Shown one piece after another: positions 4,940 through 64,000 of a stretch of DNA of 64,000 bases. How positions within the stretch are numbered: the first letter of the stretch is position 1; each line of letters starts with the position of its first letter. The stretch is from Patescibacteria group bacterium (GTDB taxonomy: Bacteria > Patescibacteriota > Minisyncoccia > RBG-13-40-8-A), in the NCBI GenBank assembly GCA_043807255.1, contig JAZDGD010000009.1, positions 29,476 through 93,475 on the forward strand, given 5' to 3'. The notes under the pieces were generated by a model. It worked only from the letters and a program-made list of their open reading frames with translations. It was not told where the DNA came from and did not search any database. Position numbers and translations under genes: made by a program.

Positions 4940-5137
4940 AATACCCGAGGTCTGACCTCGGGTATTTCTGTATCTTATGAGGCTAAGCCTCGTAAGATAT
5001 AATCCTGATATCGGGAGGTTCGACCTCTAACGCCCCCCCGCATCAACACTTAATATTGGGAGGTCGAACCTCTTATTATGTGGGACGTGCGACGTCCCAC
5101 ATAAATACGAAACATACGGAGAACTGTTCTCCGTATC
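4940..5137. repeat. Array of six different GC-rich hairpins in tandem
   Basis: Hairpins: cccgaggtctgacctcggg (4945), cttatgaggctaagcctcgtaag (4975), gggaggttcgacctc (5013), gggaggtcgaacctc (5058), gtgggacgtgcgacgtcccac (5080), atacggagaactgttctccgtat (5115). Confidence 0.6.
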
Positions 5138-6544: not shown

Positions 6545-7315
6545 TTACTTTTTCTTGGCTTTTTTTGTTACTTTTTTAGATTTTTTTTCTCCGACCTCGG
6601 TCCCGATCTTCATCGGGACAACGATTGGAGCGGGTGCGAAAACTCCAAATTGTTCAAGTAAAATTTCCGCTGCTCTATTAAATGCGTATTCTGGTTCAAC
6701 GCTACCGTCGGTTTCAATATCAATTTTAACTCTATTAAAATCGGTTTTATCTCCAACGCGCATATTCTCTACTTCATAATTAACCCTCTTTACTGGAGTA
6801 TAAATTGCATCTAAAGCAATTGCGCCAATTTCTAGTTTGTCTTTCTTTCTTTGTTCAACCGGAACATAACCTAACCCCGTCCCAATTTCAAGTTCCATTT
6901 CTAATTTTGCCTTAGCACTGGTGAGCGTTGCGATATGTGCATCTTTATTAACAACCTCAATTTCTGCGGTTGTTTTAATGTCTTTTGCCTTCACTTCTTT
7001 TTCTCCACTTGCCTTTAATTCTATTTTTATTGAAGGAATTTCTGCGTTTACCTTAAATCTTATTTGTTTTAAATTTAAAATTATTTGAATCACGTCTTCC
7101 AAAACATTGGGAATAGTAGAAAATTCATGACTTACTCCCTTAATCTTAACCGAAGTGATTGCAGCGCCAGACAAAGATGACAAAATCACTCTTCGAAAGG
7201 CGTTACCAATAGTTATGCCATAGCCGGGGTAACAATTATCTATTTCAAAAATTGCACGGTTATCGCCTTTTTTAATAACTTTCGGTTTTATTGGTAAAGA
7301 TATTTTGTGTTCCAT
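6545..7315 (-). CDS. rpoA: DNA-directed RNA polymerase alpha subunit, N-terminal domain only with a Lys-rich tail (no alpha-CTD)
   Basis: 256 aa with RpoA NTD motifs (GYGITIGNAFRRVLLSS-like). Ends in KKSKKVTKKAKKK. Bacterial RpoA is normally about 330 aa. Confidence 0.8.
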   Translation of the reverse strand: MEHKISLPIKPKVIKKGDNRAIFEIDNCYPGYGITIGNAFRRVILSSLSGAAITSVKIKGVSHEFSTIPNVLEDVIQIILNLKQIRFKVNAEIPSIKIELKASGEKEVKAKDIKTTAEIEVVNKDAHIATLTSAKAKLEMELEIGTGLGYVPVEQRKKDKLEIGAIALDAIYTPVKRVNYEVENMRVGDKTDFNRVKIDIETDGSVEPEYAFNRAAEILLEQFGVFAPAPIVVPMKIGTEVGEKKSKKVTKKAKKK

Positions 7316-7324
7316 ATAAATTAT

Positions 7325-7412
7325 TATTCAAATCTACAAATTGTTATGCGAATCTACGAATTATTCGTTGATTCGGATACAGATTCGTATCATTCGGATA
7401 ATGTATTAATTA
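7325..7412. repeat. Palindromic intergenic repeat, family 2 (rpoA leader); copies at 60245-60340 and, inverted, at 40935-41003
   Basis: Shared sequence cgaatctacaaatt..gcgaatctacgaattattcgttgattcggata...attcg.atcattcggataat. Confidence 0.6.
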
Positions 7413-7416
7413 AAAA

Positions 7417-8049
7417 TTATCTTGAATAAAATTCAATAATCATTGCTAGGTCAACCGGAAGTTCAACCTGTGCCCTGCCCGGAGCCCCATGAACAATTGC
7501 TTTAAATGTTTCACCCTCCTTGCTCTCAACTGAAAGCCATGACGGAATAGTTTGTTTTTTAATTTTTGCTTCCATGTCTTTAAATATGATCTTTTTTATA
7601 CTTTCTGGCCTGATTGCAATAACATCGCCCTTCTTAAGATGAATTGATGGAATGTCAACCCTTTTGTTGTTTAACAAAACATGACCATGGCTAACTATTT
7701 GTCTGGCCTTGGCCCTCGATCCGGCAATTCCTAATCTAAAAATAGCGTTATCTATTCTGGTTTCTAATTTTGCAATTAGAACATCGGGCACAACACCCTT
7801 TACCCTTGAAGCTTCTTCAAAATATTTTCTAAACTGTCTCTCGGTTATTCCATAAATTTTCTTAACTTTTTGTTTTTCAGCTAATTGAGCACCATATTCA
7901 GATAGAGCTGATTTATGTTTCTTTGCTTTCATGCCCGGAGGATATGGCTTTTTGATCATTGCGCACTTTACACTAAAACATCGCTCTTCTCGTAAAAAGA
8001 GTTTTTGCCCTGAACGTCTACATTTTTTACAAATTGGTCCTCTTAACAT
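7417..8049 (-). CDS. rpsD: 30S ribosomal protein S4
   Basis: 210 aa with the N-terminal Cys cluster and an S4 domain. Confidence 0.85.
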   Translation of the reverse strand: MLRGPICKKCRRSGQKLFLREERCFSVKCAMIKKPYPPGMKAKKHKSALSEYGAQLAEKQKVKKIYGITERQFRKYFEEASRVKGVVPDVLIAKLETRIDNAIFRLGIAGSRAKARQIVSHGHVLLNNKRVDIPSIHLKKGDVIAIRPESIKKIIFKDMEAKIKKQTIPSWLSVESKEGETFKAIVHGAPGRAQVELPVDLAMIIEFYSR

Positions 8050-12705: not shown

Positions 12706-13266
12706 TTATTCGAATCTTACTTTTTTAACTAAAAGAAAATCTACAAAAGATTTTAAATTATATTGTTCAATCAATTCTTTGGTTTCTTTCTCTGTGTCAT
12801 ATTGGCAAACCCAAATACTTTGTTGCATTTTTTTATATCCTAAATATTTCAATCCCCTCCTAAACCAATCCCTGTCTTTTCGCCTACTTTCCGATATGTC
12901 AAATAAAACCATTTGCCACTTTCTGTCTTTTCTTAGGTTATTGTCTGTCAATTTTAATTTTGTGATAAATAATTTTTCGAAACCTTTTGATGTAATTATT
13001 ACGGCCGATTTATCCTTCGCTCTTAACGTTTTCAAATAACCACTACTTTTTAACTTACAAACCGTTCCAGCAAATCTTCTTTTGCTTTTTTCCCTTTCGC
13101 GTTTCTTTTTGTTTTCATTTGTCCACTCGTCTCTGAATGTATTGAAGTCGGAAAAACGCAACCCTCCTCTTTCGGGAATAATTTTGCCAATTACGTCTTT
13201 TGTTTTATTTTTGAAATTATATAAATCCCAAAGAAATTGTTCGGTAAATGGTAATTTAAGTCTCAT
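12706..13266 (-). CDS. Winged-helix / Cas2-VapD-like fusion protein (paralog 1)
   Basis: The C-terminal half, KWQMVLFDISESRRKDRDWFRRGLKYLGYKKMQQSIWVCQYD, matches the Cas2 core pattern (hVhhhYDI..RR..h...L...G.RhQxSVFxC). The N-terminal half, CKLKSSGYLKTL...VIITSKGFEKL, looks like a winged helix. Confidence 0.55.
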   Translation of the reverse strand: MRLKLPFTEQFLWDLYNFKNKTKDVIGKIIPERGGLRFSDFNTFRDEWTNENKKKREREKSKRRFAGTVCKLKSSGYLKTLRAKDKSAVIITSKGFEKLFITKLKLTDNNLRKDRKWQMVLFDISESRRKDRDWFRRGLKYLGYKKMQQSIWVCQYDTEKETKELIEQYNLKSFVDFLLVKKVRFE

Positions 13267-19184: not shown

Positions 19185-20057
19185 TTACAAACTAATCATT
19201 TCTACTTCTTTTTGAATTTTTTCAAATTTAATAAATTTAAACTTGGTTAATAATTTGACCATCCCCCAACTCAACATTATCACTATTCCGACATACAGCA
19301 TGCTCACTATCTTTAGGGTAATGAACAATCCAACCGCCAATCCTAACGGGATTAAATACTGATAAGCACCGGTAACATTGTTTAATTGATAATCAATTAT
19401 TTTATATAAAACTTTTCTGCCCGTGTCATCTTTTTCCACTTTAATCCCAAATTTATTTTCCAATTCTTGTTTTTGTGACTCCTGAAGAATTTTATCGGCA
19501 TTTGAATCTAAATCAATCCCCAATGGAAGCTTTTTCTCAATTAGTCCTTCAAGTGGTTTTAAAATTGCATTTATGGTTTTTTCTGGAACATTTATTTTGG
19601 TCGTACTCTTTCTTGTTAGTTCTGGTGAAAAATAATAAACAATCGAAACAACCAGAATTAAAGCAGTTAAAAATATTGGCAGTCCTCTTTTAAAAATTCT
19701 AAAAAAGTTTAAATCAATTTGGACATCTTCTTCTTTTTTAATCTTTTTAGAAGCAGACATAAATGCCAGGAACAATAAGCCCAAAACAATCAGATAATAT
19801 AACGGTTCGGCGTTGAAGAAAATAAAAAATAGCAACAAGCTAATCACAAATCCACCAAAAAGAATTCGTTTATCTTTAACTAAAAGCATCGTCAAACAAT
19901 TGGCAATGCCGAATAGAACAAAAATTCCCACAATCAATGCCCAATGACTAACGAAATAATTGTGGCCATAAAATATCATTCTTAACATCCACCAACACAA
20001 AAAACTAAATAACACTAAAACACTAGCCAAAACTATTTCTTTTTGTTTCGTTTGCAT
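19185..20057 (-). CDS. Polytopic membrane protein, hypothetical
   Basis: 290 aa with multiple TM helices. Confidence 0.4.
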   Translation of the reverse strand: MQTKQKEIVLASVLVLFSFLCWWMLRMIFYGHNYFVSHWALIVGIFVLFGIANCLTMLLVKDKRILFGGFVISLLLFFIFFNAEPLYYLIVLGLLFLAFMSASKKIKKEEDVQIDLNFFRIFKRGLPIFLTALILVVSIVYYFSPELTRKSTTKINVPEKTINAILKPLEGLIEKKLPLGIDLDSNADKILQESQKQELENKFGIKVEKDDTGRKVLYKIIDYQLNNVTGAYQYLIPLGLAVGLFITLKIVSMLYVGIVIMLSWGMVKLLTKFKFIKFEKIQKEVEMISL

Positions 20058-20095
20058 ATTAGACCAATTAGGTTAATTAGAATAATTAGGTTAAT

Positions 20096-24150: not shown

Positions 24151-25532
24151 GATTATACAATACGCTAACCAGAAAAAAGGAAATTTTTAAACCCATTAAG
24201 AAGGGTTTTGTTGGTATTTATACTTGCGGGCCAACCGTTTATTCTTTTGCTCACATTGGGAATTTAAGAAGTTATGTTTTTGCTGATATTTTAAAAAGAA
24301 TTTTTATTTACAATAAATATAAAGTAAAACACGTAATCAATGTAACTGATGTTGGACATTTAACCTCTGATGCCGATGAAGGCGAAGATAAAATAGAAAA
24401 AGCGGCCTTGCGCGAAAATAAAAAAGCTGAAGATATCGCAAATTATTATTTTGGATTTTTCAAACGAGACCTAGAAAAACTTAATATTTTAAAACCAGAA
24501 ATTTATTGTAAGGCAACCGAACACATTAAAGAACAAATTGAGTTAATCAAAAAGCTTGAAAAAAAAGGATTTACTTATAAAACCTCTGATGGAATTTATT
24601 TTGATACATCTAAAATAAAAGACTACGGTAAGCTTGCACAATTAAAAAAAGAAGGGTTAATTGCTGGCAAGAGAATTGATTTTAAAGAAAAGAAAAATAT
24701 CACTGATTTTGCTTTATGGAAATTCTCCCCGCCTATCGGCGGGGCAAGCTTCTCTCTTAAGAGACAACAGGAATGGAAAAGTCCTTGGGGCGTTGGCTTT
24801 CCCGGCTGGCACATTGAATGCTCGGCAATGTCTATAAAATATCTCAGTGAACATTTTGATATTCATACTGGCGGGATTGACCACATTCCAATTCATCACA
24901 CCAACGAGATTGCCCAGTCCGAAGCAGCTACCGAAAAGAAATTCGTAAATTATTGGATACACGGCGAATTCCTTAATTTTAAAGGGAAAAAAGTTTCGAA
25001 ATCGAAAGGCGGGCTTTATACCGTTTCGGAGTTGCAAGAAAAAGGATTTAATCCCCTTGCATTTCGTTATTTAACATTTATCACTCATTATCGTGACCCA
25101 TTAAATTTTTCCCTAGAATCATTACAAAGCGCACAAGAATCATATAATCGATTAAAAAATATTATATGGGAGAACCGAGACAAAAGAACCAAAAAAGAGT
25201 ATTTGAAAGAATTTCAAAAAGCTATTAACGATGACTTAAATATGCCCAAGGCATTAAGCATTGTTTGGAAAATGGTACGAGACAAGAAACCCGCCCGCAA
25301 CGCCAGCAAGCTGTCTTGCTTGGCAGGCGAGGTGGACAAGGTTTTTGGATTGGATTTGTTAAAGAAAGAAAAGATAGAAATTTCTTCCGGCGTTGAGGAT
25401 TTAATCAAAGACCGCGAACAATCAAGAAAGAATAAGGACTGGCAAAAATCCGACGAGCTTCGTGACAAAATAAAATCCCTCGGTTATACCGTCGAAGACA
25501 CCCCCGAAGGACAAAAAATTAAGAAAATATAA
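24141..25532 (+). CDS. cysS: Cysteinyl-tRNA synthetase
   Basis: HIGN and KVSKSKG (KMSKS) motifs and the SPWG..GWHIECS zinc site. Confidence 0.9.
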
Positions 25533-26972: not shown

Positions 26973-27005
26973 CGTCTAATTATTCTAATTGATCTAATTA
27001 TTCTA

Positions 27006-27626
27006 ATGTTACCAAGATCCATACAAAATTTAATTGATGAGTTTGCCAAACTTCCATCAGTGGGGCCGAGACAAGCGGCTCGTTTTGTTTTTTATTTATT
27101 AAATGAGCCCAAAGAAGATATTGAAAAATTCGCTAAGAAATTATTTATCCTAAAAAAGATTAAACATTGTCATTTCTGTAATCGTGCAATCGAGCCCTCC
27201 TTCGCCAAGGCTACGGAGGGCAAGCCCGCCTTGTGTGATATTTGCAAGAACAAAGATAGAGACAGAAGTTTAATCTGTATTATAGAAAAAGACACCGACA
27301 TTGAATCAATTGAAAAAACTAAAAGATACGATGGCATTTATTATGTAATTGGAACCGAAGATGAAAATATCCAATTGAACCGACTCAAGGATTTAATCTC
27401 GCGAATTAAAAAATCCGAAAAGGAATTAAATGAAATTATTATTGCTACTGACGCCACAACTGAGGGCGAAACAATTGCCCTATATTCCGCAAGACAACTC
27501 GAGGAACTTAAAAAAACCTACCCAGGGCTTAAAATAACCCGCTTAGGACGCGGTTTATCCACTGGAGCAGAGTTAGAGTATATGGACGAAGATACGCTTT
27601 CCAACGCATTGTTGGGGAGAAAATAA
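27006..27626 (+). CDS. recR: Recombination protein RecR (zinc finger carries an inserted loop)
   Basis: C4 zinc finger CHFC...CDIC and a Toprim domain (IIIATDATTEGE). Confidence 0.8.
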   Translation: MLPRSIQNLIDEFAKLPSVGPRQAARFVFYLLNEPKEDIEKFAKKLFILKKIKHCHFCNRAIEPSFAKATEGKPALCDICKNKDRDRSLICIIEKDTDIESIEKTKRYDGIYYVIGTEDENIQLNRLKDLISRIKKSEKELNEIIIATDATTEGETIALYSARQLEELKKTYPGLKITRLGRGLSTGAELEYMDEDTLSNALLGRK

Positions 27627-30885: not shown

Positions 30886-30916
30886 AAATCTTACGAGGTT
30901 AAACCTCGTAAGATTT
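30886..30916. repeat. REP-like palindrome, copy 1 (aaatcttacgaggttaaacctcgtaagattt)
   Basis: Perfect 14-bp inverted repeat overlapping the transposase stop codon. Confidence 0.7.
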
Positions 30917-31610
30917 ATTCTAATGACAATTCTCTTGCGTCGTTTACTGCCATGTCCTTCAGCCATTTTTCTATATTTTGTTTGTATTTCCCATCTCCAC
31001 CAAACACTCCCAATAAAAATTCTCTATTTGTAATTGAAGGAAAGTTCTTTTTACCTGCGTAATCCAAATAACTAGACCAACGATAATTGCCTAAATATTC
31101 CATCGCTCCGTTATAATTATTTAGTTTTCTTGCTCGCCATTCCGGAAAACTGAGATCTAGTGGATTCAAATGAATATAATATGGAAGGTTTAAGAAATGA
31201 TTTTGTTTGTCGATTAAAATTGATTTATACGTACTCTGAAATAATGTTCCCCTTCTTTTGTATTTTTTATTGAATGACATCGTATAACCGGTTCCTAATT
31301 TTTGCATAAACCTAGAAATACCATTATCTTTTTTCTGTTTCAACAATAAATGATAATGATTTGGCATCAAACAAAATGCTAAAATTTCCACAAGCAATTT
31401 TCTCTCTTTAATCTTGCGAGGTTTAACCTCGTAAGATTCTAGGTCCATAGATTTATAATATATATTTTCTGCGGGTGCCTCATCGTTAAATTCATACAGA
31501 TCGTGAATAAAACGAAGATGGTCCTTGTCGTCTGCAAATATGTTTCTCTGTTCAACTCCGTGATTTAAAACGTGATAAATTTCATTATTTTCAAATTGTG
31601 GTTTTTTCAT
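30915..31610 (-). mobile_element. tnpA: IS200/IS605-type Y1 (HUH) transposase, REP-associated (RAYT-like)
   Basis: N-terminal YHVLNHGVEQRNIF, HUH motif PNHYHLLL, and catalytic Tyr context GTLFQSTYKSILID. Flanked by REP-like palindromes. Confidence 0.6.
31410..31438. repeat. REP-like palindrome, copy 2, inside the transposase CDS in-frame
   Basis: aatcttgcgaggtttaacctcgtaagatt, which encodes SYEVKPRKI. Confidence 0.65.
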
Positions 31611-31640
31611 AATATTTTTATATTATCATAATTAAAATAT

Positions 31641-31667
31641 GTTTACGAGGTTAAACCTCGTAAGATT
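31641..31667. repeat. REP-like palindrome, copy 3
   Basis: gtttacgaggttaaacctcgtaagatta. Confidence 0.7.
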
Positions 31668-31721
31668 AATTGTAACATAAAAATTGATATTTAGATATAA
31701 TTCTGCTATATTTTAACTAAC

Positions 31722-31794
31722 GGCCCCATCGTCTAGTGGCCCAGGACATCAGATTCTCATTCTGAAAACACCGGTTCAACTCCGGTTGGGGCTA
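31722..31794 (+). tRNA. tRNA-Glu (anticodon CTC)
   Basis: Hand-folded cloverleaf: acceptor GGCCCCA/TGGGGCT, anticodon loop TTCTCAT, T-loop TTCAACT. Confidence 0.7.
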
Positions 31795-31800
31795 AAACCA

Positions 31801-31833
31801 AAAATCTTACGAGGTTTAACCTCGTAAGATTTT
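31801..31833. repeat. REP-like palindrome, copy 4
   Basis: aaaatcttacgaggtttaacctcgtaagatttt. Confidence 0.7.
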
Positions 31834-31862
31834 ATAATACAACCGAATAATCAGAATTAAAA

Positions 31863-37679: not shown

Positions 37680-38255
37680 CTAATTGATTTTAAATGTTTC
37701 TCTTAACTCTCTATCATCTCCTATTCTGTCGGCCACGATTAATCTAATTTCGTTTTCGGTTAATCCAAAAAAATCTCTCAACAAATCGATTTCATCTTTA
37801 CAATTAAATGGATGGATCCAAACACTTTTTTGAATTAATTGAAATCCCAACTCTTTTAATTTTCCGCGAAAAGCATCTCTATGGGCCTTTTTCAAATGTG
37901 CAATATCAAACATAACCAATCTCCATTTCTTGTCCCATTTTTTCGGTTTACCGATCTTTAATTCGTCTATCTGCATCCAACCAGCTTTTCTCTTGCCTTT
38001 GTCCGTAAGCGAAATATGCATGCCACCTTTTTTGATTTCTATCTTTATCAATCCTTGTTTCTTGAGTTTATAAAAATTGTCTTGCACCTTTTTGTTGCCA
38101 TATCTTTTAAATTGCTTCAATCCCCTCATTAAATTTCGTATAAAATAAGGAGAACTAGCCGCGACGACAACTGCACCAGAAATTAATAGTGCTATCAAAA
38201 TATCTTTAACAATTTCAGATTTTGGTTTTTTAAAATAATATTTATATTTTGTCAT
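37680..38255 (-). CDS. Winged-helix / Cas2-VapD-like fusion protein (paralog 2, with N-terminal TM helix)
   Basis: KKWRLVMFDIAHLKKAHRDAFRGKLKELGFQLIQKSVWIHPFN is Cas2-like. FYKLKKQGLIKIEIKKGGMHISLTDKGKR is wHTH-like. Aligns along its length with paralog 1. Confidence 0.55.
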   Translation of the reverse strand: MTKYKYYFKKPKSEIVKDILIALLISGAVVVAASSPYFIRNLMRGLKQFKRYGNKKVQDNFYKLKKQGLIKIEIKKGGMHISLTDKGKRKAGWMQIDELKIGKPKKWDKKWRLVMFDIAHLKKAHRDAFRGKLKELGFQLIQKSVWIHPFNCKDEIDLLRDFFGLTENEIRLIVADRIGDDRELRETFKIN

Positions 38256-38389: not shown

Positions 38390-40927
38390 TTATACTCCGC
38401 CACCGATTTCGCTTGCTTCAATTTTTACAAAATCACCACGTTTTAAGTCTTGTTCTAAAATTATTTTTGCAACCCGACTCTCAACTTCGTCTTGAATTGC
38501 CCTTCTCATCGGCCTTGCACCAAATTCTGGTTTATATCCAATTTTAACAATTTTCTCAATTAAATCAGGAGTTATTATTAATCTCACTCCCGTACCATCT
38601 AACAATCTCTTCGATAAATCGTTCATCATTAAAATCGCAATCTTAATTAAATGTTCGTGTGCCAATGGCCTAAATACCATAACCGCATCAAAACGATTTA
38701 AAAACTCTGCTCTAAATATTCCATCTTTCATTAAATAATCAACCAAATCATCTTTAAATGTTCGCAAATCTCTCCCCTGTCTTACGCATTGTCTAATTAA
38801 TTCTGCTCCGGCATTAGAGGTTCCAATAATTATTGATTCAGAAAAATTTATTTTTCTGCCAAAAGCATCAGTCAAGAATCCTTCATCCAAAACTTGTAAA
38901 AATAAATTCAAAATATTGGGATGAGCTTTTTCAATTTCATCCAAAAGAATAACTGAAAATGGATCATCCAAAACCGCTTTTGCCAAAAGCCCTGGTTCAT
39001 CTTTTTCTAAAGAACCAATTAAACGACTAATATTAGAAATTTCTTGATATTCGGACATATCGAATCTAATCATTTTCGTTTCTGATCCAAAATACGCTTC
39101 GGCCAATGCCTTAGCTGTTTCGGTTTTTCCAACTCCAGTTGGTCCAAGAAATAAAAAACTACCAATTGGTCTTTTATGAGATTTAATGCCCACCCTTGCC
39201 CTGCGCATTGCTTGAGCGATCGCCTTTACTGCCTCTTCCTGGTCAACTACTCGCCGATGTATTCTTTGTTCTAATTCTAAAAGTTTTTTCTTTTCATCTT
39301 CTTTAATCGCACCAATTGGGATCTCTACTCTTTCGGAAATAATTCGATTAACATATTCTGGAGGAATTATTTTTTCGCCTTTTTGCTTTGCATAAATTAG
39401 AACTTCGGTTAAAATATCAATTGCTTTTTGTGGAAATGGCTTGTCTTGTATGTAACGATCCGTCAATTGAACAATGTTTCTTAAAATTTTATAACTTACA
39501 GAAATGTCGTATTGTTTTTCAAATTTTGGCAACATGTCTTGAAGAACAAAAATCACCTGTTCTTGGGTTGGCATGTTCATTTCAACTTTCACAAATAAAT
39601 TTTTCACTGATGCATTATTTTCAATGTGTCTGTGCCAACCATCGAAGGTTGTCAGACCAATGATTTGAAAATTTGAAGAATTTAAATATGGCAATAAAAT
39701 CGAGGTAATATCTATGGTCCCCGGCCCCTTGTTAACACCTAAATAATTATGTATCTCGTCGACAATTAAAATTATATTCCCCGCGCTTACTGCTTCGGAA
39801 AAAATAATTCTTAATCTCTCTAATATTTTTCCCGGATCACTAATTCCAGCCAAAACTGCTTGCATATCCAACTCCAAGATTCTTTTATCGTTCAAATTTG
39901 AAAATGATCTACCTTCAATTACTTTTTTGGCAAATCCATATGCGACCGTTGATCTACCAGACCCCGACTCTCCAACCAATAAAACATTATTCTCTCCACT
40001 ACGAGATAAAATTCTTTCAATGGCATAAATTTCTTTTTGATGGCCAAGTAAGTGTATGGACAAGTCTTGCTTTTTAAAAACATCATTAATTTCAACACTG
40101 TAGTTATCTAAATTCACAGTGTAGCCAGCCGCCCAACGCTTGCCTACGCCCCTTTTACGCAATAAGTTTTCCAGTCTCCAAAATTGACTTTTTCTTCTTA
40201 TTTCGTTTTCAATATAATCTTCCCAAACCGCAACACGATCAACGTCTTCGGGATTCATTTCGTATTTAGACAGAATGTTTATAAAATTTTCATCTTCTTC
40301 TGCGGCTGCGATTAAAAAGTCTCTAATGTCAATGTTTCTGTGAAAATGAGAAATCGCTAATGTTGTGGCCCTTTTTAGGGTGGTAATAAATTTTTGTTCA
40401 TCAATATTGTCTTCAACGCTTTTTTTCATTTCCGTGATTAATTTTTCCCGAAACAAACCCTCATCCAGTCCTAATTTGGTAAAAATTTCTTTGCCTCGCG
40501 AATCGTTCCAAAAGTTACAAACAACTGCAAAAACATTTAATCCTCTTTTTTTTCTTTGACAAAATCTTATCGATTTTATAATTGCTCTCGCAACTCTAAA
40601 ATCCAAATATTCTGCCAAATTCACATCTTTTATCTTTTCTTCGGACAGTCTTTCTGCTAATGGTTTTTTAATTAAAAAGTTCTGACGCAAGGCATCAATA
40701 AACGCAACATAAATAATGCAAACAACAAAAAAACAAACGAAAATTATAAATAAAGCAAAATTCTGTTGCGTGTTCAATCCCAAAAGTCCTGGTTTGAAAA
40801 TTCCCAAGAAAAATATCAGTGCAATGACTATAAACACCATTCCCCAAATTCGTATAAATTTAAGAGGAAAGACTTTTTCCAATTGCACCGACCTATATAC
40901 AAGATTGTTTTTTTCTAAATCAAACAT
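38390..40927 (-). CDS. Clp/Hsp100-family double AAA+ ATPase with an N-terminal two-TM membrane anchor
   Basis: D2 Walker A GPTGVGKTE. D1 P-loop is GESGSGRST, with Arg in place of Lys. Clp N-domain-like repeats follow the TM segment. Confidence 0.7.
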   Translation of the reverse strand: MFDLEKNNLVYRSVQLEKVFPLKFIRIWGMVFIVIALIFFLGIFKPGLLGLNTQQNFALFIIFVCFFVVCIIYVAFIDALRQNFLIKKPLAERLSEEKIKDVNLAEYLDFRVARAIIKSIRFCQRKKRGLNVFAVVCNFWNDSRGKEIFTKLGLDEGLFREKLITEMKKSVEDNIDEQKFITTLKRATTLAISHFHRNIDIRDFLIAAAEEDENFINILSKYEMNPEDVDRVAVWEDYIENEIRRKSQFWRLENLLRKRGVGKRWAAGYTVNLDNYSVEINDVFKKQDLSIHLLGHQKEIYAIERILSRSGENNVLLVGESGSGRSTVAYGFAKKVIEGRSFSNLNDKRILELDMQAVLAGISDPGKILERLRIIFSEAVSAGNIILIVDEIHNYLGVNKGPGTIDITSILLPYLNSSNFQIIGLTTFDGWHRHIENNASVKNLFVKVEMNMPTQEQVIFVLQDMLPKFEKQYDISVSYKILRNIVQLTDRYIQDKPFPQKAIDILTEVLIYAKQKGEKIIPPEYVNRIISERVEIPIGAIKEDEKKKLLELEQRIHRRVVDQEEAVKAIAQAMRRARVGIKSHKRPIGSFLFLGPTGVGKTETAKALAEAYFGSETKMIRFDMSEYQEISNISRLIGSLEKDEPGLLAKAVLDDPFSVILLDEIEKAHPNILNLFLQVLDEGFLTDAFGRKINFSESIIIGTSNAGAELIRQCVRQGRDLRTFKDDLVDYLMKDGIFRAEFLNRFDAVMVFRPLAHEHLIKIAILMMNDLSKRLLDGTGVRLIITPDLIEKIVKIGYKPEFGARPMRRAIQDEVESRVAKIILEQDLKRGDFVKIEASEIGGGV

Positions 40928-40934
40928 AAGATAT

Positions 40935-41003
40935 TATTATTCGAATGATGCGAATTCTTATCCGAATCAACGAATTCGTAGATTCGGATATTTTATTTGT
41001 AGA
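40935..41003. repeat. Palindromic intergenic repeat, family 2, inverted copy (Clp ATPase leader)
   Basis: tatccgaatcaacgaattcgtagattcggata is a near-perfect 32-bp palindrome and the reverse complement of the 7325/60245 copies. Confidence 0.6.
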
Positions 41004-41378
41004 TTAGGATAATAAAATTATACTAAAAATTAAAAGCCCCAATATTAATAAGGGCAAAATAATCCACAAAATAAAGAATATTCCTCCAATAATAACCGTT
41101 AATACTAAATAAATAATCCCGACCAAAATTGTAAAAAATCTAATCAGAAAACCGGTTCCACGAGAAATCATATTGAATGCTAGATATTCAAAAAGTTTTT
41201 TAAAATCTAACCCCTGTGGTTTTTTTGTAATATCCCTTCTCCAGGGCGCAAATAGGGTTTTAAACAATAAGGGAATAGAAAAATAGCTTAAAGCAAAAAT
41301 AATAAAATTTCGCCAAGCGTCTAAAACGTTTCTCAGCGCCTCCCCGTAATACCATCTCCAAAACACCAAAACTATCAT
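41004..41378 (-). CDS. Small membrane protein, hypothetical
   Basis: 124 aa with three or four TM helices. Confidence 0.35.
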   Translation of the reverse strand: MIVLVFWRWYYGEALRNVLDAWRNFIIFALSYFSIPLLFKTLFAPWRRDITKKPQGLDFKKLFEYLAFNMISRGTGFLIRFFTILVGIIYLVLTVIIGGIFFILWIILPLLILGLLIFSIILLS

Positions 41379-43987: not shown

Positions 43988-44050
43988 GTTAATGTGAATG
44001 CAATGTTCCCTGCCCGCAACGCCAGCAAGCTGGCTTGCGTGGCGGGCGGG

Positions 44051-44734
44051 TTACCACAAATTCAGCTTGTTAATCAAAACGTCCTTATTCTCGTTAATCA
44101 AGTCTCTAACAAAACGGTCATACATATCATAACGATAATTAAATTCTTTTGCTGACATTGTGACAAAATTTAATTCCTTGCCTACCTCCGCTTCCAGGTC
44201 CTTGGAAAAAGTTGTTAATTTTCTTGTATTTATCTTGTCACCCACAATCAATAAATCCGCTCCGTCGGCTTCATTGTTTCTAAAAATTCCACCCAAAACC
44301 AAAAGCTTAACATTGCCAATTTTTCGTACATTATTAATCAATTCACCTTTTGAGGAAATTGTTGATTTTAAAATTAAGTCTTTTAATTCTTTCAAAAAGT
44401 CAAAATTATTATTCAAAGAATAAACTATTCTCCCCTGTTTTTTTCTGCTTTCAATCAGGCCAATTCTTTCTAATTTTTTAATTTCTTGTTTTACGGCAGA
44501 ATTATTCGTTCTTACCATTTTCAGAATTTCTCTAACCTGAAAGGCATCAACCGAATTTCTAAAAAAGAATTTCATCAATTTTACCTTTGCCAACGATTCA
44601 AATAACTGCTCTAATGTCCCCTTGCCTATTATGTTTTTGGCCTTTTGTCGGGATTTGTGCTTTAAAATTCGCTTCCTCGCCTTTTTGACGGGTTTTTTGG
44701 TCATTTTCTTGGTTTTCTTTATCTTCTTTTTCAT
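44051..44734 (-). CDS. Putative transcriptional regulator (Lys-rich N-terminus, wHTH, nucleotidyltransferase-like C-terminus)
   Basis: wHTH-like VREILKMVRTNNSAVKQEIKKLERIGLIE. C-terminal LGGIFRNNEADGADLLIVGD. Confidence 0.35.
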   Translation of the reverse strand: MKKKIKKTKKMTKKPVKKARKRILKHKSRQKAKNIIGKGTLEQLFESLAKVKLMKFFFRNSVDAFQVREILKMVRTNNSAVKQEIKKLERIGLIESRKKQGRIVYSLNNNFDFLKELKDLILKSTISSKGELINNVRKIGNVKLLVLGGIFRNNEADGADLLIVGDKINTRKLTTFSKDLEAEVGKELNFVTMSAKEFNYRYDMYDRFVRDLINENKDVLINKLNLW

Positions 44735-46951: not shown

Positions 46952-47359
46952 CTATTTAAGCTCTACGGTGGCTCCAACGCCTTCTAACCTTGTTTTTAAC
47001 TCTTCTGCATCTTCTTTCTTAAGATTTTCCTTAATAACTTTCGGAGCCGCGTCAACAATTGCTTTTGATTCCTTTAATCCAAGCCCAGAAATTTCACCGA
47101 TGATTTTAATAACCTGAATCTTTTGATCTCCAGCTGATTTTAATTCGACATTAAAAGCTGTTTTTTCAACTTCGACGCTCGCTTCTGGCGAGGTCGGAGT
47201 CCCGACTCCCGCGGACGTCGGGATTGCCGCACTAACTCCAAATTTTTCTTCTAAAACTTTAACAAGTTCAGACAAATCCATAACAGTCATTTTTTCAATT
47301 TCATCAACTAATTTTTTGAATTTTTCTGGAACCTTTACGTCCTTGTTTTTTTCAGTCAT
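46952..47359 (-). CDS. rplL: 50S ribosomal protein L7/L12
   Basis: Ala/Glu-rich and L12-like. Confidence 0.85.
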   Translation of the reverse strand: MTEKNKDVKVPEKFKKLVDEIEKMTVMDLSELVKVLEEKFGVSAAIPTSAGVGTPTSPEASVEVEKTAFNVELKSAGDQKIQVIKIIGEISGLGLKESKAIVDAAPKVIKENLKKEDAEELKTRLEGVGATVELK

Positions 47360-47364
47360 CTTAT

Positions 47365-47455
47365 TATGATGCCAATCTACTAATCTTATGCCAATCTACA
47401 GACTGCGAATTCGCAGTTCGCATAATTGGCATTAAATTCGCATATTCGCATTATG
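47365..47455. repeat. 90-bp palindromic leader repeat, family 1 (rplL leader); near-identical copy at 62985-63075 in the rplK leader
   Basis: gccaatctactaatcttatgccaatctacagactgcgaattcgcagttcgcataattggcat... Confidence 0.7.
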
Positions 47456-47966
47456 ATTTATTGCTTATCGCACTTAATACTCCAATCAAATTCCTTAAAT
47501 TGCCCTGCAATACGTTTGCAAAACCACTGATTGGACTCTTTATTGAACCAACTAATTTGGCCAATAAAATTTCTCGAGAAGGAATTTTTGATAACTCTTT
47601 AATTTCTAATGCCGACAAAACTCTGCCTTCAACCATACCGCCTAAAATTTTAAATTTATCATTGGTTTTGGCTAGCTTAGTAAGAACCTTGATTAAAGAT
47701 ATCGGATCGCCATATCCAAAACTTGATGCCAAAGAACCACTAAATTCTGACAAATCCATTTCTTTGCCTTCTTTTTTGAGAGCCAATTTCATTAAAGTTT
47801 TCTTCGCAACTCTATATTCCCCTTCTAGTTTTCGAAGTTCTTTTCGAATAATTTGAATGTCTTTAACCTTAACCCCTTTGGCGTCGGTAAAAATCAAAGA
47901 TTTCTGGCGTTTAATTTTGTCAGCTAACTCCTCTACAATTTCCTGTTTTTGTTTTTTTGTTAACAT
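47451..47966 (-). CDS. rplJ: 50S ribosomal protein L10
   Basis: MLTKKQKQEIVEELADKIK... The listed ORF is extended 23 codons upstream. Confidence 0.8.
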   Translation of the reverse strand: MLTKKQKQEIVEELADKIKRQKSLIFTDAKGVKVKDIQIIRKELRKLEGEYRVAKKTLMKLALKKEGKEMDLSEFSGSLASSFGYGDPISLIKVLTKLAKTNDKFKILGGMVEGRVLSALEIKELSKIPSREILLAKLVGSIKSPISGFANVLQGNLRNLIGVLSAISNKS

Positions 47967-48158
47967 TGTTTTTTTAATTAAAAATCTGCGACCTTTCCGC
48001 AGACAAACCTCTAAACTTATGGATATTAAACCCACAAATTTTCAGTCTCGACAGGATTTAAGCTTTCGCAACCTGTTGTCTACGACCATCTAATTATGCA
48101 TTAATAGTATTACAATTTTAAACCGTTGTCAAGCTTGCCCGCCTCTGACGAGATACCC

Positions 48159-49980: not shown

Positions 49981-50430
49981 TTAAAGCTCATATCTAATGA
50001 ACTTTTCTATTTTAATATTCTCTCCCAGCTTACCAATTTTAGCTTCAATTAAATCCTTAACGGTGATTGAAGGATTTTTTATAAATGGTTCGGCTAATAA
50101 TGTTTCTGGGTCTTTTGAATTCATGCCAGCAATATGCATTGCAATTTCATGTGCTAGTTCTTTAAATTCCTCGTTCTTGGCAACAAAATCGGTTTCGCAT
50201 TTTAATTCTAATAAAACACCAATTTTTGCATTGGCATGAATATATGCTTCAATTACACCCTGATTTGCGGTTCTGTCTGATTTTTTCATTGCCGTTAATT
50301 TGTCTTTTTCTTTTAAAATTTCGGTTGCCTTTGTTTCGTCGCCATTCGCCTCTTCCAGCGCCTTTTTACAATCCATCATTGAAGCTCCTGTTTTTTCTCT
50401 TAATTGTTTGACTAGGTCTGCGTTTATCAT
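49981..50430 (-). CDS. tsf: Elongation factor Ts (short form)
   Basis: UBA-like N-terminus LVKQLREKTGASMMDCKKAL. Confidence 0.8.
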   Translation of the reverse strand: MINADLVKQLREKTGASMMDCKKALEEANGDETKATEILKEKDKLTAMKKSDRTANQGVIEAYIHANAKIGVLLELKCETDFVAKNEEFKELAHEIAMHIAGMNSKDPETLLAEPFIKNPSITVKDLIEAKIGKLGENIKIEKFIRYEL

Positions 50431-58770: not shown

Positions 58771-59142
58771 TTATTTTCCCCTCATCGTCCTAACACTAGA
58801 AGCTAAAATGTTTGCTAACTCAATTAATTCTTTCAATAATTCGTTAATTTCATTTTTGTCGCCCTTATTCGCGTCTCGTAACAGTGCCAACCAAAACTTT
58901 GATTCATTTGCAGACTTTAGGGCATAACTTAAAAAATTTACAAATTCTTTTTTAGAGCTTCCGGCTATTGCTTCAACATAATTAGCGCCAATACTTGTGC
59001 CACACCGCATAAGTTGATTATCAGCGGTTTTACATAAAGTATCTGTTTTCGATAAGGTGTCTAAAAATTTTATTAATCTCAATATCCAATTATAAATCCT
59101 TCTTTTTAATTCCTCGCTAAATTTTTTATTATCTTGTGACAT
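58771..59142 (-). CDS. Four-helix-bundle protein (23S rRNA intervening-sequence protein family)
   Basis: RCGTSIGANYVEAIAGSSKKEF..FLSYALKSANE matches the family signature. Confidence 0.55.
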   Translation of the reverse strand: MSQDNKKFSEELKRRIYNWILRLIKFLDTLSKTDTLCKTADNQLMRCGTSIGANYVEAIAGSSKKEFVNFLSYALKSANESKFWLALLRDANKGDKNEINELLKELIELANILASSVRTMRGK

Positions 59143-59197: not shown

Positions 59198-60229
59198 TCA
59201 CTTAATAAGTTTTCCGCTTTTAATTACATGTTCAACCAAAGTTGATGAATAACCCCATTCATTATCGTACCAGGCCATAACTTTTACTAAATCGCCATCA
59301 ATAACTTTTGTAAATCCCAAATCAACAATAGCAGCGGTAGTAATGCCAATAAAATCCGAGGAAACCAATTGTTCACTAGTTACACCTAAAATCCCTTTCC
59401 AGTGTGGTTTTTTAGATGCCTCAATTAAAATATTATTAATTTCCTCAACTGAAGTTTTTCGGTTGGCTACAAAAGTTATGTCCGCCAAAGAAACCGTTGG
59501 CACCGGAGTCCTGATTGCTAGACCATCAAATACGCCTTTTAAGTTTTTTACAACCTTCGTAACTGTAATCGCTGCTCCCGTAGAAGACGGAACCAAACTA
59601 ATTGCTCCCGCCCTGCCCCTGCGCCAATCCTTCGCATCTGGACCATCAACAATTTTTTGCGTTGCCGTATAAGCATGGGTTGTATTTAAGACTGCCTTTT
59701 TTATCCCTGGATTTTCTGATAAAACCGCCATCACCGGTGCAACTGCATTGGTTGTGCAAGAACCGTTAGAAGTAATGTTTACTCGCGACATATCTTTTTC
59801 ATTAATCCCTAAAAGCACGGTTCCGCCAAGCTTAAAGCTCTCGTCGTCGTCTTTTGATGGCGCAGTGATTACCACTCTCTTGGCTCCAGCTTTTATGTGC
59901 GCAGAACTTCCCTCAAAAGAATCAAAAAATCCTGTTGCCTCAACAACCACATCTATTCCCAATCTTGCCCATGGCAATTTTATTGGATCTTTTTCTTGAA
60001 AAAAATCAATTTTTTGATTATCAATAATTAATTTTTTTTGCTTTAAATCAACACTAACCCTGTGGTCATATGCACCATAAACGCTATCGTGTTTTAAAAG
60101 ATAGGCCAAATTTTCTAAATCAGCCAAATCATTAATTGCCACGATTCTTAAATCGTTTCGTTCATGGGCTATCCTTAAAAAACTTCGACCAATTCTCCCA
60201 AATCCACTTATTGCTACTTTCGTAAACAT
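59198..60229 (-). CDS. gap: Glyceraldehyde-3-phosphate dehydrogenase
   Basis: NGFGRIGR and SCTTN motifs. Confidence 0.9.
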   Translation of the reverse strand: MFTKVAISGFGRIGRSFLRIAHERNDLRIVAINDLADLENLAYLLKHDSVYGAYDHRVSVDLKQKKLIIDNQKIDFFQEKDPIKLPWARLGIDVVVEATGFFDSFEGSSAHIKAGAKRVVITAPSKDDDESFKLGGTVLLGINEKDMSRVNITSNGSCTTNAVAPVMAVLSENPGIKKAVLNTTHAYTATQKIVDGPDAKDWRRGRAGAISLVPSSTGAAITVTKVVKNLKGVFDGLAIRTPVPTVSLADITFVANRKTSVEEINNILIEASKKPHWKGILGVTSEQLVSSDFIGITTAAIVDLGFTKVIDGDLVKVMAWYDNEWGYSSTLVEHVIKSGKLIK

Positions 60230-60244
60230 ACAATTAAATATTCG

Positions 60245-60340
60245 AATCTACAAATTAGTATACGAATCTACGAATAATTCGTTGATTCGGATAAATATTC
60301 GCATCATTCGGATAATATTACTTATATTGTAATTATACCA
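60245..60340. repeat. Palindromic intergenic repeat, family 2 (gap leader)
   Basis: cgaatctacaaattagtatacgaatctacgaataattcgttgattcggataaatattcgcatcattcggataat. Confidence 0.6.
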
Positions 60341-60343
60341 CTT

Positions 60344-61420
60344 TTAAAACTTTTTTATAATCGCATCAATCATTTCAATTGTGCCCACAGCACTGGGATC
60401 ATTTCTGTCTAACTTTAGATCATAGGTTACATCCTTCCCCTCTTTGATCACTTCCTTCCATGCATTTTCTATTTTTAGAGCAATCTTATCTTCGCCAATG
60501 TGTCGCAACATCATAATCCCCGACAAAAGAGTTGCTGATGGATTAACTTTGTTTAAACCAGTATATTTTGGCGCTGAACCGTGCGTTGGCTCAAAAACAA
60601 CAATCCCCTCACCAATATTTGCCCCCGGCGCAACTCCCAATCCCCCAACCAGTCCTGCACATAAATCAGAAATAATATCGCCATACAAATTCGGCAGAAC
60701 TAAAACATCAAAATTGTTTGGTCTCAAAACAAGTTGCATTGTTAAATTATCCACAATTACTTCTTCAAATTCAATTTCTTTATATCGTCCTGCAATTTCC
60801 CTGGCCACTTTTAAGAATAAGCCATCTGTAAATTTCATAATATTTGCCTTATGGATACAGCTAACTTTTTTACGTTTATTTTCTACTGCATACTTAAAAG
60901 CAAATTCAATTATTCTTCTTGATGCCTTTTCAGAAATCGGTTTTATGCCCAAAGCAGTGCTCAAATCAAGATTTTTATTTGTTTTTTCTTTAATCCATTT
61001 CAATAATTCTTCAGTCTCTAGTTTGCCTTTTTCAAATTCAATTCCCGCATATAAATCCTCACTGTTTTCTCTCACGATTACAATATCAATATTGCTATAT
61101 TTAGAGTTTATCCCCGTATATGACCGACATGGCCTTAAACAAGCGTACAAGCCCAATTCTTGCCTTAAGGCCACATTAACAGAACGAAATCCACCACCAA
61201 TCGGCGTTGTAATTGGCCCCTTCAAGGCAACTTTGTTTCTTTTTATTGAATCTAATGTTTTGGGTGGAAACGGTGTTCCATATTTTTCAATTGCCGACAA
61301 TCCCGCGTCCATTTCTTCCCAATCGATATTTGCACCAGCAGCATCAATACATTTTTTTACTGCATAAACAATTTCTGGTCCCGTTCCGTCGCCGGGTATT
61401 AATGTAATTTTATGATTCAT
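60344..61420 (-). CDS. Isocitrate/isopropylmalate dehydrogenase family protein (probably NAD-dependent isocitrate dehydrogenase)
   Basis: [19 protein letters not shown], and NLYGDIISD motifs. Confidence 0.7.
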
Positions 61421-62557: not shown

Positions 62558-62980
62558 TTATTCAATGTTTATGCCCATATTCTTTGCCGTTCCTTCGATG
62601 ATTTTCATTGCTGCTTCGATGTCATTGGCATTTAGGTCTTCCATTTTTGTTTCTGCAATTTGTCTTACCTGTTCTCTGGTAACTTTTCCAACTTTGTCTT
62701 TTTGTGGAACCCCAGACCCCTTTTCAATTCCTGCTGCTTTTTTTAATAAATCAGCTGCTGGTGGAGTTTTTAATACAAAGCTAAAGGTTCTATCTGTAAA
62801 AATTGTAATTTCCGCTGGAATTACATTTCCCATTTTATCTTTTGTTGCTTCATTAAATTTTCCACAAAAATCTTGAAGGTTTAATCCGTGTGGACCTAAA
62901 ACCGTACCCACTGGTGGAGCTGGTGTAGCGCCTCCGGCGGGAAGTTGAATTTTAATAATTGTCTTTATTTCTTTTGCCAT
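62558..62980 (-). CDS. rplK: 50S ribosomal protein L11
   Basis: [23 protein letters not shown]. Confidence 0.9.
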
Positions 62981-62984
62981 AATA

Positions 62985-63075
62985 ATTATTATAATGCCAA
63001 TCTACTAATCTTATGCCAATCTACAGACTGCGAATTCGCAGTTCGCAATATTGGCATTAAGTTCGCATATTCGCA
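62985..63075. repeat. 90-bp palindromic leader repeat, family 1 (rplK leader copy)
   Basis: About 90% identical to 47365-47455. Confidence 0.7.
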
Positions 63076-63621
63076 TTATATCTTTTTGACTTGTAGGAAA
63101 TCCAACTCTACTGGAGTTTCCCGTCCAAACATATTTACTAAAACTTTAATTTTACCTTTGCCATGATCAACTTCGCTGATTTTGCCTTCCATGTCCTTAA
63201 ATGGCCCATCGGCAATTTTCACAATATCGCCAACCTCAACATCAATTTTATAAACTGGCTCATCTTTGGTTTCTGCTTTTAATATTTTTGTAATTTCCTC
63301 ATCAGAAACTGGAACCGGCGTAATCCCCGAACCAATAAAACCCGTTACTCTTGGCGTATTTCTAACCACATACCAGGAATCATCGGTCACAATCATGTCT
63401 ACAAAAACATAGTTTGGAAAAAATTTCTCTTCAATTATTTGTCTTTTTCCGCCCTTTATTTTTATCTTTTTTTCCTTGGGAACCACAATATTAAAAATTT
63501 TATCACCCATTCCCAACGACTCAATTCTTTGTTTCAAATTAAAAGCAACCGTATCTTCTGATGCAGGATAGGTATGAATTGCATACCAGTGTCTTTCCCC
63601 CGTTGTTTCTTGCTTTGGCAT
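63076..63621 (-). CDS. nusG: Transcription antitermination factor NusG
   Basis: NGN domain (WYAIHTY) and KOW domain. Confidence 0.85.
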   Translation of the reverse strand: MPKQETTGERHWYAIHTYPASEDTVAFNLKQRIESLGMGDKIFNIVVPKEKKIKIKGGKRQIIEEKFFPNYVFVDMIVTDDSWYVVRNTPRVTGFIGSGITPVPVSDEEITKILKAETKDEPVYKIDVEVGDIVKIADGPFKDMEGKISEVDHGKGKIKVLVNMFGRETPVELDFLQVKKI

Positions 63622-63830: not shown

Positions 63831-64000
63831 AGGCCATCTTAATTACAAGTTTATTATAAAATAATTCCCGTGTCAATAATTATTTATAACTATCTCTTTC
63901 GTAATTTGAATTAAAAAAATTTAATGATTTTGTTCATATTTGAAGATGTCAGAGGTCATACCTCAGACATCTATATTTTTAAGACTGTAAACTAAATTCA

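Follow-up and report, generated by a model that had tools for sequence, protein, structure and literature searches.

A palindromic element, probably of MITE-like nature, abuts the start codons of rpoA, gap and a Clp ATPase gene in a Patescibacteria genome

Correia repeat-enclosed elements (CREE/NEMIS), MITEs of Neisseria, are palindromic non-coding repeats of about 100 bp with inverted ends and a TA flank; they lie mostly immediately upstream of genes, and their insertions differ between related genomes. The ends of these elements can create promoters of the sigma-70 type, and their hairpins are co-transcribed and undergo RNase III processing (PMC2649163, PMC10969869). Putative mobile promoters are a purely operational class that comprises upstream regions of 50-100 nt with at least 80% identity preceding non-homologous genes within or between genomes (Matus-Garcia, Nijveen & van Passel 2012, PMC3488235). 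The sequences of REP/REPIN-RAYT systems are dispersed extragenic doublets that form hairpins and carry a GTAG motif. In the IR/DR ends of Tc1/mariner elements (Sleeping Beauty, Tc3), each end holds two directly repeated protein-binding units and the target is a TA dinucleotide.

Here we describe, from a 64-kb stretch of Patescibacteria DNA (the window, by which we mean the whole stretch that was analysed), a palindromic element that we call family 1 and that forms the leaders of rpoA, gap and a gene for a ClpB/C-type ATPase. Family 1 resembles the Correia elements in its small size, palindromic build, inverted ends, TA flank, position before genes and insertion differences between genomes, and probably also in ends able to form promoters and in a co-transcribed hairpin, but its hosts belong to the Patescibacteria, its interior is made of four phased direct-repeat units instead of a core with an IHF site, and its known copies stop 7-10 nt before the start codon in a genome nearly devoid of Shine-Dalgarno sequences. 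As far as we know the Correia ends, no sequence relation between the two is apparent. The three copies of the window, with 87-91% identity over 40-90 nt, fall within the definition of putative mobile promoters, and differ from that class in having defined ends and an internal architecture. As in the IR/DR ends there are two direct units per end, four per element, between TA flanks; unlike those ends, which extend over hundreds of bp in autonomous elements of eukaryotes, the whole arrangement is compressed into 76 bp. The likeness to the REP/REPIN-RAYT systems lies in the dispersed hairpin-forming doublets, in the GTAG motif and in the presence of a Y1 transposase gene in the same window. We hold, with a probability of roughly 0.55, that the three leaders are copies of a MITE-like element, with units that would serve its mobilisation, a hairpin that is co-transcribed and ends that mimic a -10 box at leaderless distance. 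The feature itself is real and well delimited, and we present family 1 as a new family that belongs to a known kind of element and comes from a phylum so far little studied.

An earlier note on this DNA had described related leaders before rpoA, gap and the Clp ATPase gene, the last one inverted, and all three copies were recovered at or close to the places it gave; its loci are thus correct but its spans are too long, the conserved element measuring only 76 bp (Table 1). A profile built from 13 copies matched family 1 in the window at 7323-7402, 60238-60316 and 40936-41013 only, with E values from 2e-22 to 3e-20. For the core motif GAATCWACRAAT (12 nt, up to one mismatch allowed) the window has 15 matches where shuffles give 3.3 +/- 1.8, and 10 of these 15 fall in the three family-1 loci. 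According to the repeat finder, the rpoA and gap copies are 87% identical over 90 nt, and the inverted Clp copy is 88-91% identical to the other two. The near-perfect 32-bp palindrome that had also been noted, TATCCGAATCAACGAATTCGTAGATTCGGATA, was found at 40959-40990 with a single A.A/T.T mismatch. The neighbouring genes, identified by Pfam, are all on the minus strand (rpsD followed by rpoA, the dehydrogenase gene by gap, an ORF for a 124-aa membrane protein by the Clp ATPase gene, rplJ by rplL and nusG by rplK), and unit D of the Clp copy contains the stop codon (41004-41006) of the membrane-protein ORF.

Table 1. Positions in the window of the palindromic elements, of their units and flanks, and of the promoter-like boxes beside them.
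Feature	Coordinates	Strand	Context
Family-1 copy 1	7325-7400	-	between rpsD (7417-8049) and rpoA (6545-7315)
Units of copy 1	A 7383-7400, B 7363-7379, C 7345-7361, D 7325-7341	-	
TA flanks of copy 1	7399-7400 and 7325-7326		9 nt (7316-7324) left to the rpoA ATG at 7315
Family-1 copy 2	60239-60314	-	between the isocitrate/isopropylmalate dehydrogenase gene (60344-61420) and gap (59198-60229)
Units of copy 2	A 60297-60314, B 60277-60293, C 60259-60275, D 60239-60255		
TA flanks of copy 2	60313-60314 and 60239-60240		9 nt left to the gap ATG at 60229
Family-1 copy 3	40938-41011	+	inverted relative to the downstream ClpB/C-type ATPase gene (38390-40927, minus strand)
Units of copy 3	A 40938-40955, B 40959-40975, C 40974-40990, D 40995-41011	+	
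Family-2 element	47363-47454	-	between rplJ (47451-48035) and rplL (46952-47359)
Family-2 element	62988-63079	-	between nusG (63076-63621) and rplK (62558-62980)
-10-like AATAAT	7323-7328	-	element end plus TA plus flank, 7 nt before the rpoA ATG
-35-like TTCGCA	7347-7352	-	18 nt upstream of the rpoA AATAAT
-10-like GAATAT	60238-60243	-	element end, 8 nt before the gap ATG; weakest of the three
-10-like AATAAT	40936-40941	-	at the end formed by unit A of copy 3, 8 nt before the Clp ATPase ATG
Extended -10 promoter TGGTATAAT	60332-60340	-	upstream of copy 2; conserved as TGRTATAAT in relatives, whether or not they carry an insertion

The family-1 element opens with a TA followed by T-N-CGAAT, its end sequence reading TA-TNCGAATGAT..., and closes with ATTCG-N-A followed by a second TA. 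Each full copy holds four units of 17-18 bp, in the order A> B> <C <D and spaced 20-21 bp, of the form TAT-N-CGAAT-N3/4-CGAAT, so that the two CGAAT pentamers of a unit stand 8-9 bp apart, about one helical turn. The units have constant identities across copies, namely GAT(A/G) in A, CAA in B, CTA in C and CTA with CAAAT in D, and among the invariant unit-specific bases are CAAC in B and GTAG in C and D. Because each unit keeps its own identity the element is polar and its orientation can be defined, and the profile gives it 65-83 bits when read in one sense but 32-47 bits in the opposite one. The spacing at the centre, between the two halves, differs among copies by 0, +2 or +3 bp. The whole element, with its terminal inverted repeats, is an imperfect palindrome in which 89.5% of cells are paired, and with 76 bp and no ORF of its own it lies below the 300 bp that bound a MITE. 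Between the gene-proximal TA and the ATG 7-10 nt are left. A TA is present on both flanks in 12 of 13 copies, and the remaining copy has TG on both flanks; the latter is expected of a duplication and not of an inverted repeat, pointing to TA as the likely target, although a dinucleotide that is palindromic and invariant could belong to the inverted repeat instead. The flanks are too AT-rich and inconsistent to call a target-site duplication longer than TA.

A related palindromic cassette, family 2, occurs twice in the window, with units TATGCCAATCTAC..., a right arm GTAGATTGG and right flanks that vary among TA, CA and TT. The earlier note had seen motifs in common with these rplK and rplL leaders, in agreement with the weak matches that the family-1 profile gives on both cassettes (E 5e-4 and 6e-3). 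The motif GTAGAT is common to family 1, family 2 and the cassette family of a relative's contig (L031, 6203-6305). Further cassette families stand at the same junctions, at rpsM-rpsK of L030 and L031 and at rpsD-rpoA of L033, and in one cassette type CAAG(T/C)AT, placed immediately before the ATG, follows a GC hairpin; in the window an additional cassette site is found upstream of 49981-50430. The window also contains two hairpin families of two copies each (2902-2942 with 63939-63979, and 25288-25329 with 44009-44052), one of which, TGTCAGAGGT-CAT-ACCTCTGACA with a T-run behind it, has the appearance of an intrinsic terminator that has been reused, the other being a GC-rich CCCGCCCGCAACGCCAGCAAGCTG... 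repeat.

Outside the window, the central palindrome was used as the query in one scan of species-representative genomes and one of JGI metagenomes. Family-1 matches were confined to related Patescibacteria (UR.bin240, one diverged copy labelled as Roizmanbacteria and several metagenome contigs), apart from a few obvious chance matches, and the viral contigs that were scanned with a phage or plasmid origin in mind gave no match. With the profile, no fewer than 15 full and 3 half copies were counted in about 390 kb of related contigs. Family 1 is a dispersed family in several Portnoybacteria-like Patescibacteria, 'Portnoybacteria' being the nearest named relatives of the window genome. Every copy ends 5-8 nt before a start codon, save one at 22 nt that has its own TATAAT in between, and the distance from the upstream stop codon to the copy is variable (-8 to +27 nt). 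Eleven full copies have unit D proximal to the gene and four have unit A, and the three half elements, consisting of A and B only, are also A-proximal. Placement had been called orientation-independent; both orientations do occur, but with 11 against 7 of 18 the independence is not complete. Nor are highly expressed genes the only targets, as had been supposed. The genes downstream in relatives include rpoA, rpsK, rpsQ, nusG and, in two genomes, clpP, and also genes for a GtrA-like membrane protein, a lysine-rich protein, two glycosyltransferases, a radical-SAM enzyme and a small GxxExxY-like protein; diverged variants precede atpG, rpoD and the gene for an FtsX-type permease.

Comparison of orthologous junctions, on contigs that encode the RpoA and GAPDH orthologues of relatives, revealed an exchange of what lies between the same genes. 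At the rpsD-rpoA junction family 1 is present in the window and in L032, whose RpoA is 79% identical to that of the window, yet L030, with an RpoA 95% identical, has a small hairpin only; L031 carries a different phased-repeat palindrome with units ACGCAGAT / ATCAGCGTAGATC, L033 a GC hairpin and L034 a plain spacer of 37 nt. In blastn comparisons the collinearity of the window with L030, at about 80% identity, is interrupted exactly at the rpsD-rpoA spacer, and at six other loci the family-1 element is the sole similarity to the window, reaching 96% identity. The rpsM-rpsK and secE-nusG junctions are filled only in the UR.bin240-type genome, secE and nusG of the window overlapping as TAATG, and the nusG-rplK junction, where the window has family 2, is reduced to 1-3 nt in three relatives. 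The gap site is empty in L035 and L037, occupied by family 1 in the window and by family 2, inserted 3 nt away, in L036. A TG(G/A)TATAAT box is kept there in all four genomes compared, at 26 and 28 nt from the ATG in the empty L035 and L037, and subtraction of the element and one TA from the window site yields a promoter-to-ATG spacing of 28 nt. As to the gene content around this site, an isocitrate/isopropylmalate dehydrogenase gene is inserted in the window between a thioredoxin-reductase-like gene and gap, and directly after gap there is a gene for a '23S rRNA intervening-sequence protein' (four-helix bundle, 58771-59142) in the place where relatives have rpiB.

Family-1 elements are far more conserved than neutral sites: they are 84-97% identical between genomes, against a nearly saturated third-codon identity of 53-59% between the window and UR genomes. 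Non-orthologous copies in different genomes are closer to each other than orthologous copies are, and two sub-families, GATA-CTG-ACAA and GATG-ATT, are both found in the window and UR genomes, at different genes. Gain and loss at junctions, taken together with this similarity across genomes, form the pattern of a mobile or copy-pasted family and not that of vertically inherited operators. Copies dispersed before non-homologous genes, and their presence or absence at rpsD-rpoA, rpsM-rpsK, secE-nusG, nusG-rplK and gap, are likewise features of MITEs. Of the two proposals in the earlier note, a promoter-proximal mobile element is the one that this pattern favours, along with the abutment on start codons, the sub-families that cut across genomes and the -10-like ends.

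These ends deserve attention. Where the terminal ...CGAA of the element meets the TA and a following AT, a hexamer AATAAT results (GAATAT at gap), with TTCGNA 18 nt upstream. TTCGNA is a weak match to a -35 box (3-4 of 6 positions), and a promoter scan scored 9/12 at rpoA with no such report at the gap or Clp copies. In the half elements, which lack the hairpin, the -10-like box and the ATG stand in the same relation to each other. A Shine-Dalgarno core precedes only 4 of the 62 genes of the window, and -10-like hexamers concentrate 4-8 nt before starts, several being textbook TGnTATAAT and some having TTGACx 17 nt upstream, with boxes of the TGnTATAAT type 5-9 nt before many ATGs; the position of these boxes just before start codons indicates that many window genes are probably leaderless. 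At gap, with the conserved promoter 26-28 nt upstream (element excluded), the leader is short and also without Shine-Dalgarno sequence. With so few Shine-Dalgarno sequences and so many leaderless genes, an insertion at these sites must carry or preserve expression signals. The literature searched had nothing specific on either leaderless transcription in CPR or palindromic promoter repeats there. As a separate observation, two arrays of four CTAAT pentamers, one every 9 nt up to the ATG, were seen at 20058-20095 (minus strand) and 26976-27005 (plus strand); they precede the unrelated genes 19185-20057 and 27006-27626, and the sites are inverted copies of each other.

If the leaders are copies of a MITE-like element, the repeated units would be binding sites for a mobilising protein, two per end as in the IR/DR ends of Tc1/mariner elements, and insertion would occur at TA. 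The inserted element would be transcribed with the downstream gene, at gap from the TGGTATAAT box and at rpoA from the ribosomal-protein operon, and the transcript would fold into a long imperfect hairpin that leaves free the AU-rich 7-10 nt before the AUG. The outward end together with the TA may then recreate a -10/-35-like pair at the distance used by the leaderless genes of this genome. Given that the ends and the TA regenerate a -10-like box and that the half elements keep the geometry, the element probably doubles as a portable promoter, by analogy with the Correia elements of Neisseria. At gap, with the conserved promoter upstream, there is no need for one borne by the element. A search for Y1 homologues in about 390 kb turned up no transposase gene bounded by family-1 ends, and the only transposase gene in the window, a Y1/IS200-like one, is flanked by a different palindrome. 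The tight distance to the ATG and the invariant unit-specific bases could, in addition, reflect selection for a host function and not mobility.

One such function would be exerted by the RNA. Placed in a 5' UTR or an intercistronic spacer and ending a few nt short of the AUG, the long hairpin could be a site of RNase III processing or stabilisation, could insulate or terminate, or could hold stop and start codons in proximity for re-initiation without Shine-Dalgarno sequences, its spread being due to recombination; we consider this reading unlikely. All full copies fold, at -19 to -30 kcal/mol in family 1 and -36 to -39 kcal/mol in family 2, the z-scores of the two families together ranging from -3 to -7. 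The genes upstream are co-directional, and an element that lies inside operons, and at gap below a conserved promoter, must be transcribed there. Unrelated small hairpins at the same junctions in relatives also speak for a role of the RNA. One-sided changes in the stem mostly give G.U on the strand that is sense in most copies, by about 6-8 against 1-2, and the sense strand of family 2 folds 11-13 kcal/mol better than the antisense strand; this bias and this asymmetry hint at a constraint at the RNA level and count against the MITE-like reading. In family 1, however, the difference between sense and antisense folding is only -1.1 kcal/mol on average. Despite saturated synonymous divergence, none of the 30 stem pairs shows a compensatory change in 13 family-1 copies, the covariation score not exceeding that of shuffles, and three stem mismatches, one of them the A.A of the inner stem, are constant in all 13. 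Four full and three half copies are reversed or one-armed and yet keep their distance to the ATG. A search of the whole window at Rfam gathering thresholds returned six tRNAs and nothing else, and no intrinsic terminator, with a G+C-rich stem and U-tract, was detected at the three family-1 loci. From these comparisons of sequences we conclude that either the sequence itself is constrained, and not just its pairing, or the copies are young. The hairpin is likely to be relevant to the tolerance of the element in mRNA.

The other proposal of the earlier note was an operator for a dimeric DNA-binding regulator. Such an operator or activator array would place four dimer sites in a dyad before genes of housekeeping and of the stress response, which would make up one regulon (rpoA, gap, clp, clpP, nusG and ribosomal-protein genes), perhaps compensating for the missing C-terminal domain of the RNA polymerase alpha subunit. 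The RpoA of the window has 256 aa, with N-terminal and insert domains only; the lack of the alpha-CTD, already stated in the note, was confirmed by Pfam and extends to the best 120 RpoA homologues (247-292 aa), all of them without PF03118, so that the whole clade appears, from these domain assignments, to have a CTD-less alpha subunit. The dyad symmetry, the phasing of pentamers by about one helical turn, the spacing of units by 20-21 bp and the base-specific conservation without compensatory change all speak for such an array, the element spans -10 to -90 of the downstream start, and clpP and rpoA each carry family 1 in two genomes. The gene set is nevertheless not conserved: the closest relative has no family 1 at rpoA, a single genome has it at rpsK and nusG, and in another it stands before glycosyltransferase genes. 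A fixed operator is also difficult to reconcile with a half-to-half spacing of 0, +2 or +3 bp, with half elements, with a different family at the same site in another genome, with the coexistence of two families with different repeats in one genome, and with copies of different genomes that are more alike than orthologous copies. To our knowledge, neither the DnaA box (TTATCCGAA against TTATCCACA) nor CtsR, CIRCE, LexA/Cheo box, ARG box or IHF sites fit the spacing or the key bases. Family 1 most probably does not serve a host regulator as its operator, and we regard the array of dimer sites as very unlikely. We attach equally little credence to an adaptive mobile expression module in these Patescibacteria without Shine-Dalgarno sequences and alpha-CTD, which would join a hairpin insulator to a leaderless promoter between tightly coupled genes, its phased CGAAT pentamers being read by a lineage-specific host factor that replaces the UP-element/alpha-CTD contacts, and whose transposition would rewire which housekeeping genes are expressed independently and strongly.

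The least probable of the readings that we weighed, and a very doubtful one, is a REPIN-like doublet moved as a single-stranded hairpin by a Y1 (RAYT/IS200-like) transposase, with the GTAG of family 1, family 2 and the L031 family as the recognition head. A Y1 transposase gene with flanking palindromes does exist in the window (30915-31610), as does a second gene with GTAG-headed REPs in the relative L021; of all motifs GTAGAT alone is shared by the three cassette families, in a strand-specific manner, and a flanking REP holds CGTAAGATT where family 1 has CGTAGATT. The palindromes at the window Y1 gene, however, are a different family with ordinary REP behaviour and no fixed distance to start codons, in contrast to family 1 with its fixed position. 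The family-1 units are direct repeats of CGAAT and not small palindromes, GTAG is confined to C and D, and a TA on both flanks fits cut-and-paste DDE elements better; in about 390 kb no Y1 gene flanked by family-1 units was found. An epigenetic reading, suggested by GANTC sites in the units, was rejected, GANTC being neither depleted nor otherwise unusual in the window.

The Y1 gene of the window encodes a Y1/IS200-like (RAYT-type) transposase of 231 aa (gene 30915-31610, minus strand, within 30886-31839) and has on its flanks a perfect palindrome of 29 nt, AATCTTACGAGGTT(T)AACCTCGTAAGATT; one more copy of this palindrome lies in frame inside the gene (31410-31446), where it codes for ESYEVKPRKI, and others stand beside a tRNA and at 4972-5007, the last showing a compensatory change of GGTT/AACC to GGCT/AGCC. 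The gene and its flanking palindromes look like a REP-RAYT system in a Patescibacteria genome, and homologues of the same length are widespread in Parcubacteria. The contig L021 contains at 1124-1960 a second RAYT-like gene (176 aa) with GC-rich, GTAG-headed REPs (GGAGTAGCGCGACTTGTCGCGCGCC) on its flanks, and a family-1 copy 2.7 kb from that gene. Two small genes of the window with a PaaX_M/Cas2-like domain (12706-13266 and 37680-38255) each lie inside long inverted repeats, with arms of 66 nt (12638-12703/13252-13317) and 43 nt (37605-37647/38277-38319), and could be mobile gene cassettes or bear auto-operators.

Should the MITE-like nature of family 1 be correct, small mobile palindromes would be actively remodelling the few non-coding bases that precede the core genes of ultra-small Patescibacteria, among them those for RNA polymerase, ribosomal proteins, Clp and glycolysis. 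The finding would offer a handle on promoter architecture and on the break-up of operons in an uncultured phylum, in which the same element before different genes in different genomes would serve as a reporter provided by nature. The prediction of regulons from motifs should also take note that operators can be mimicked by dispersed repeats.
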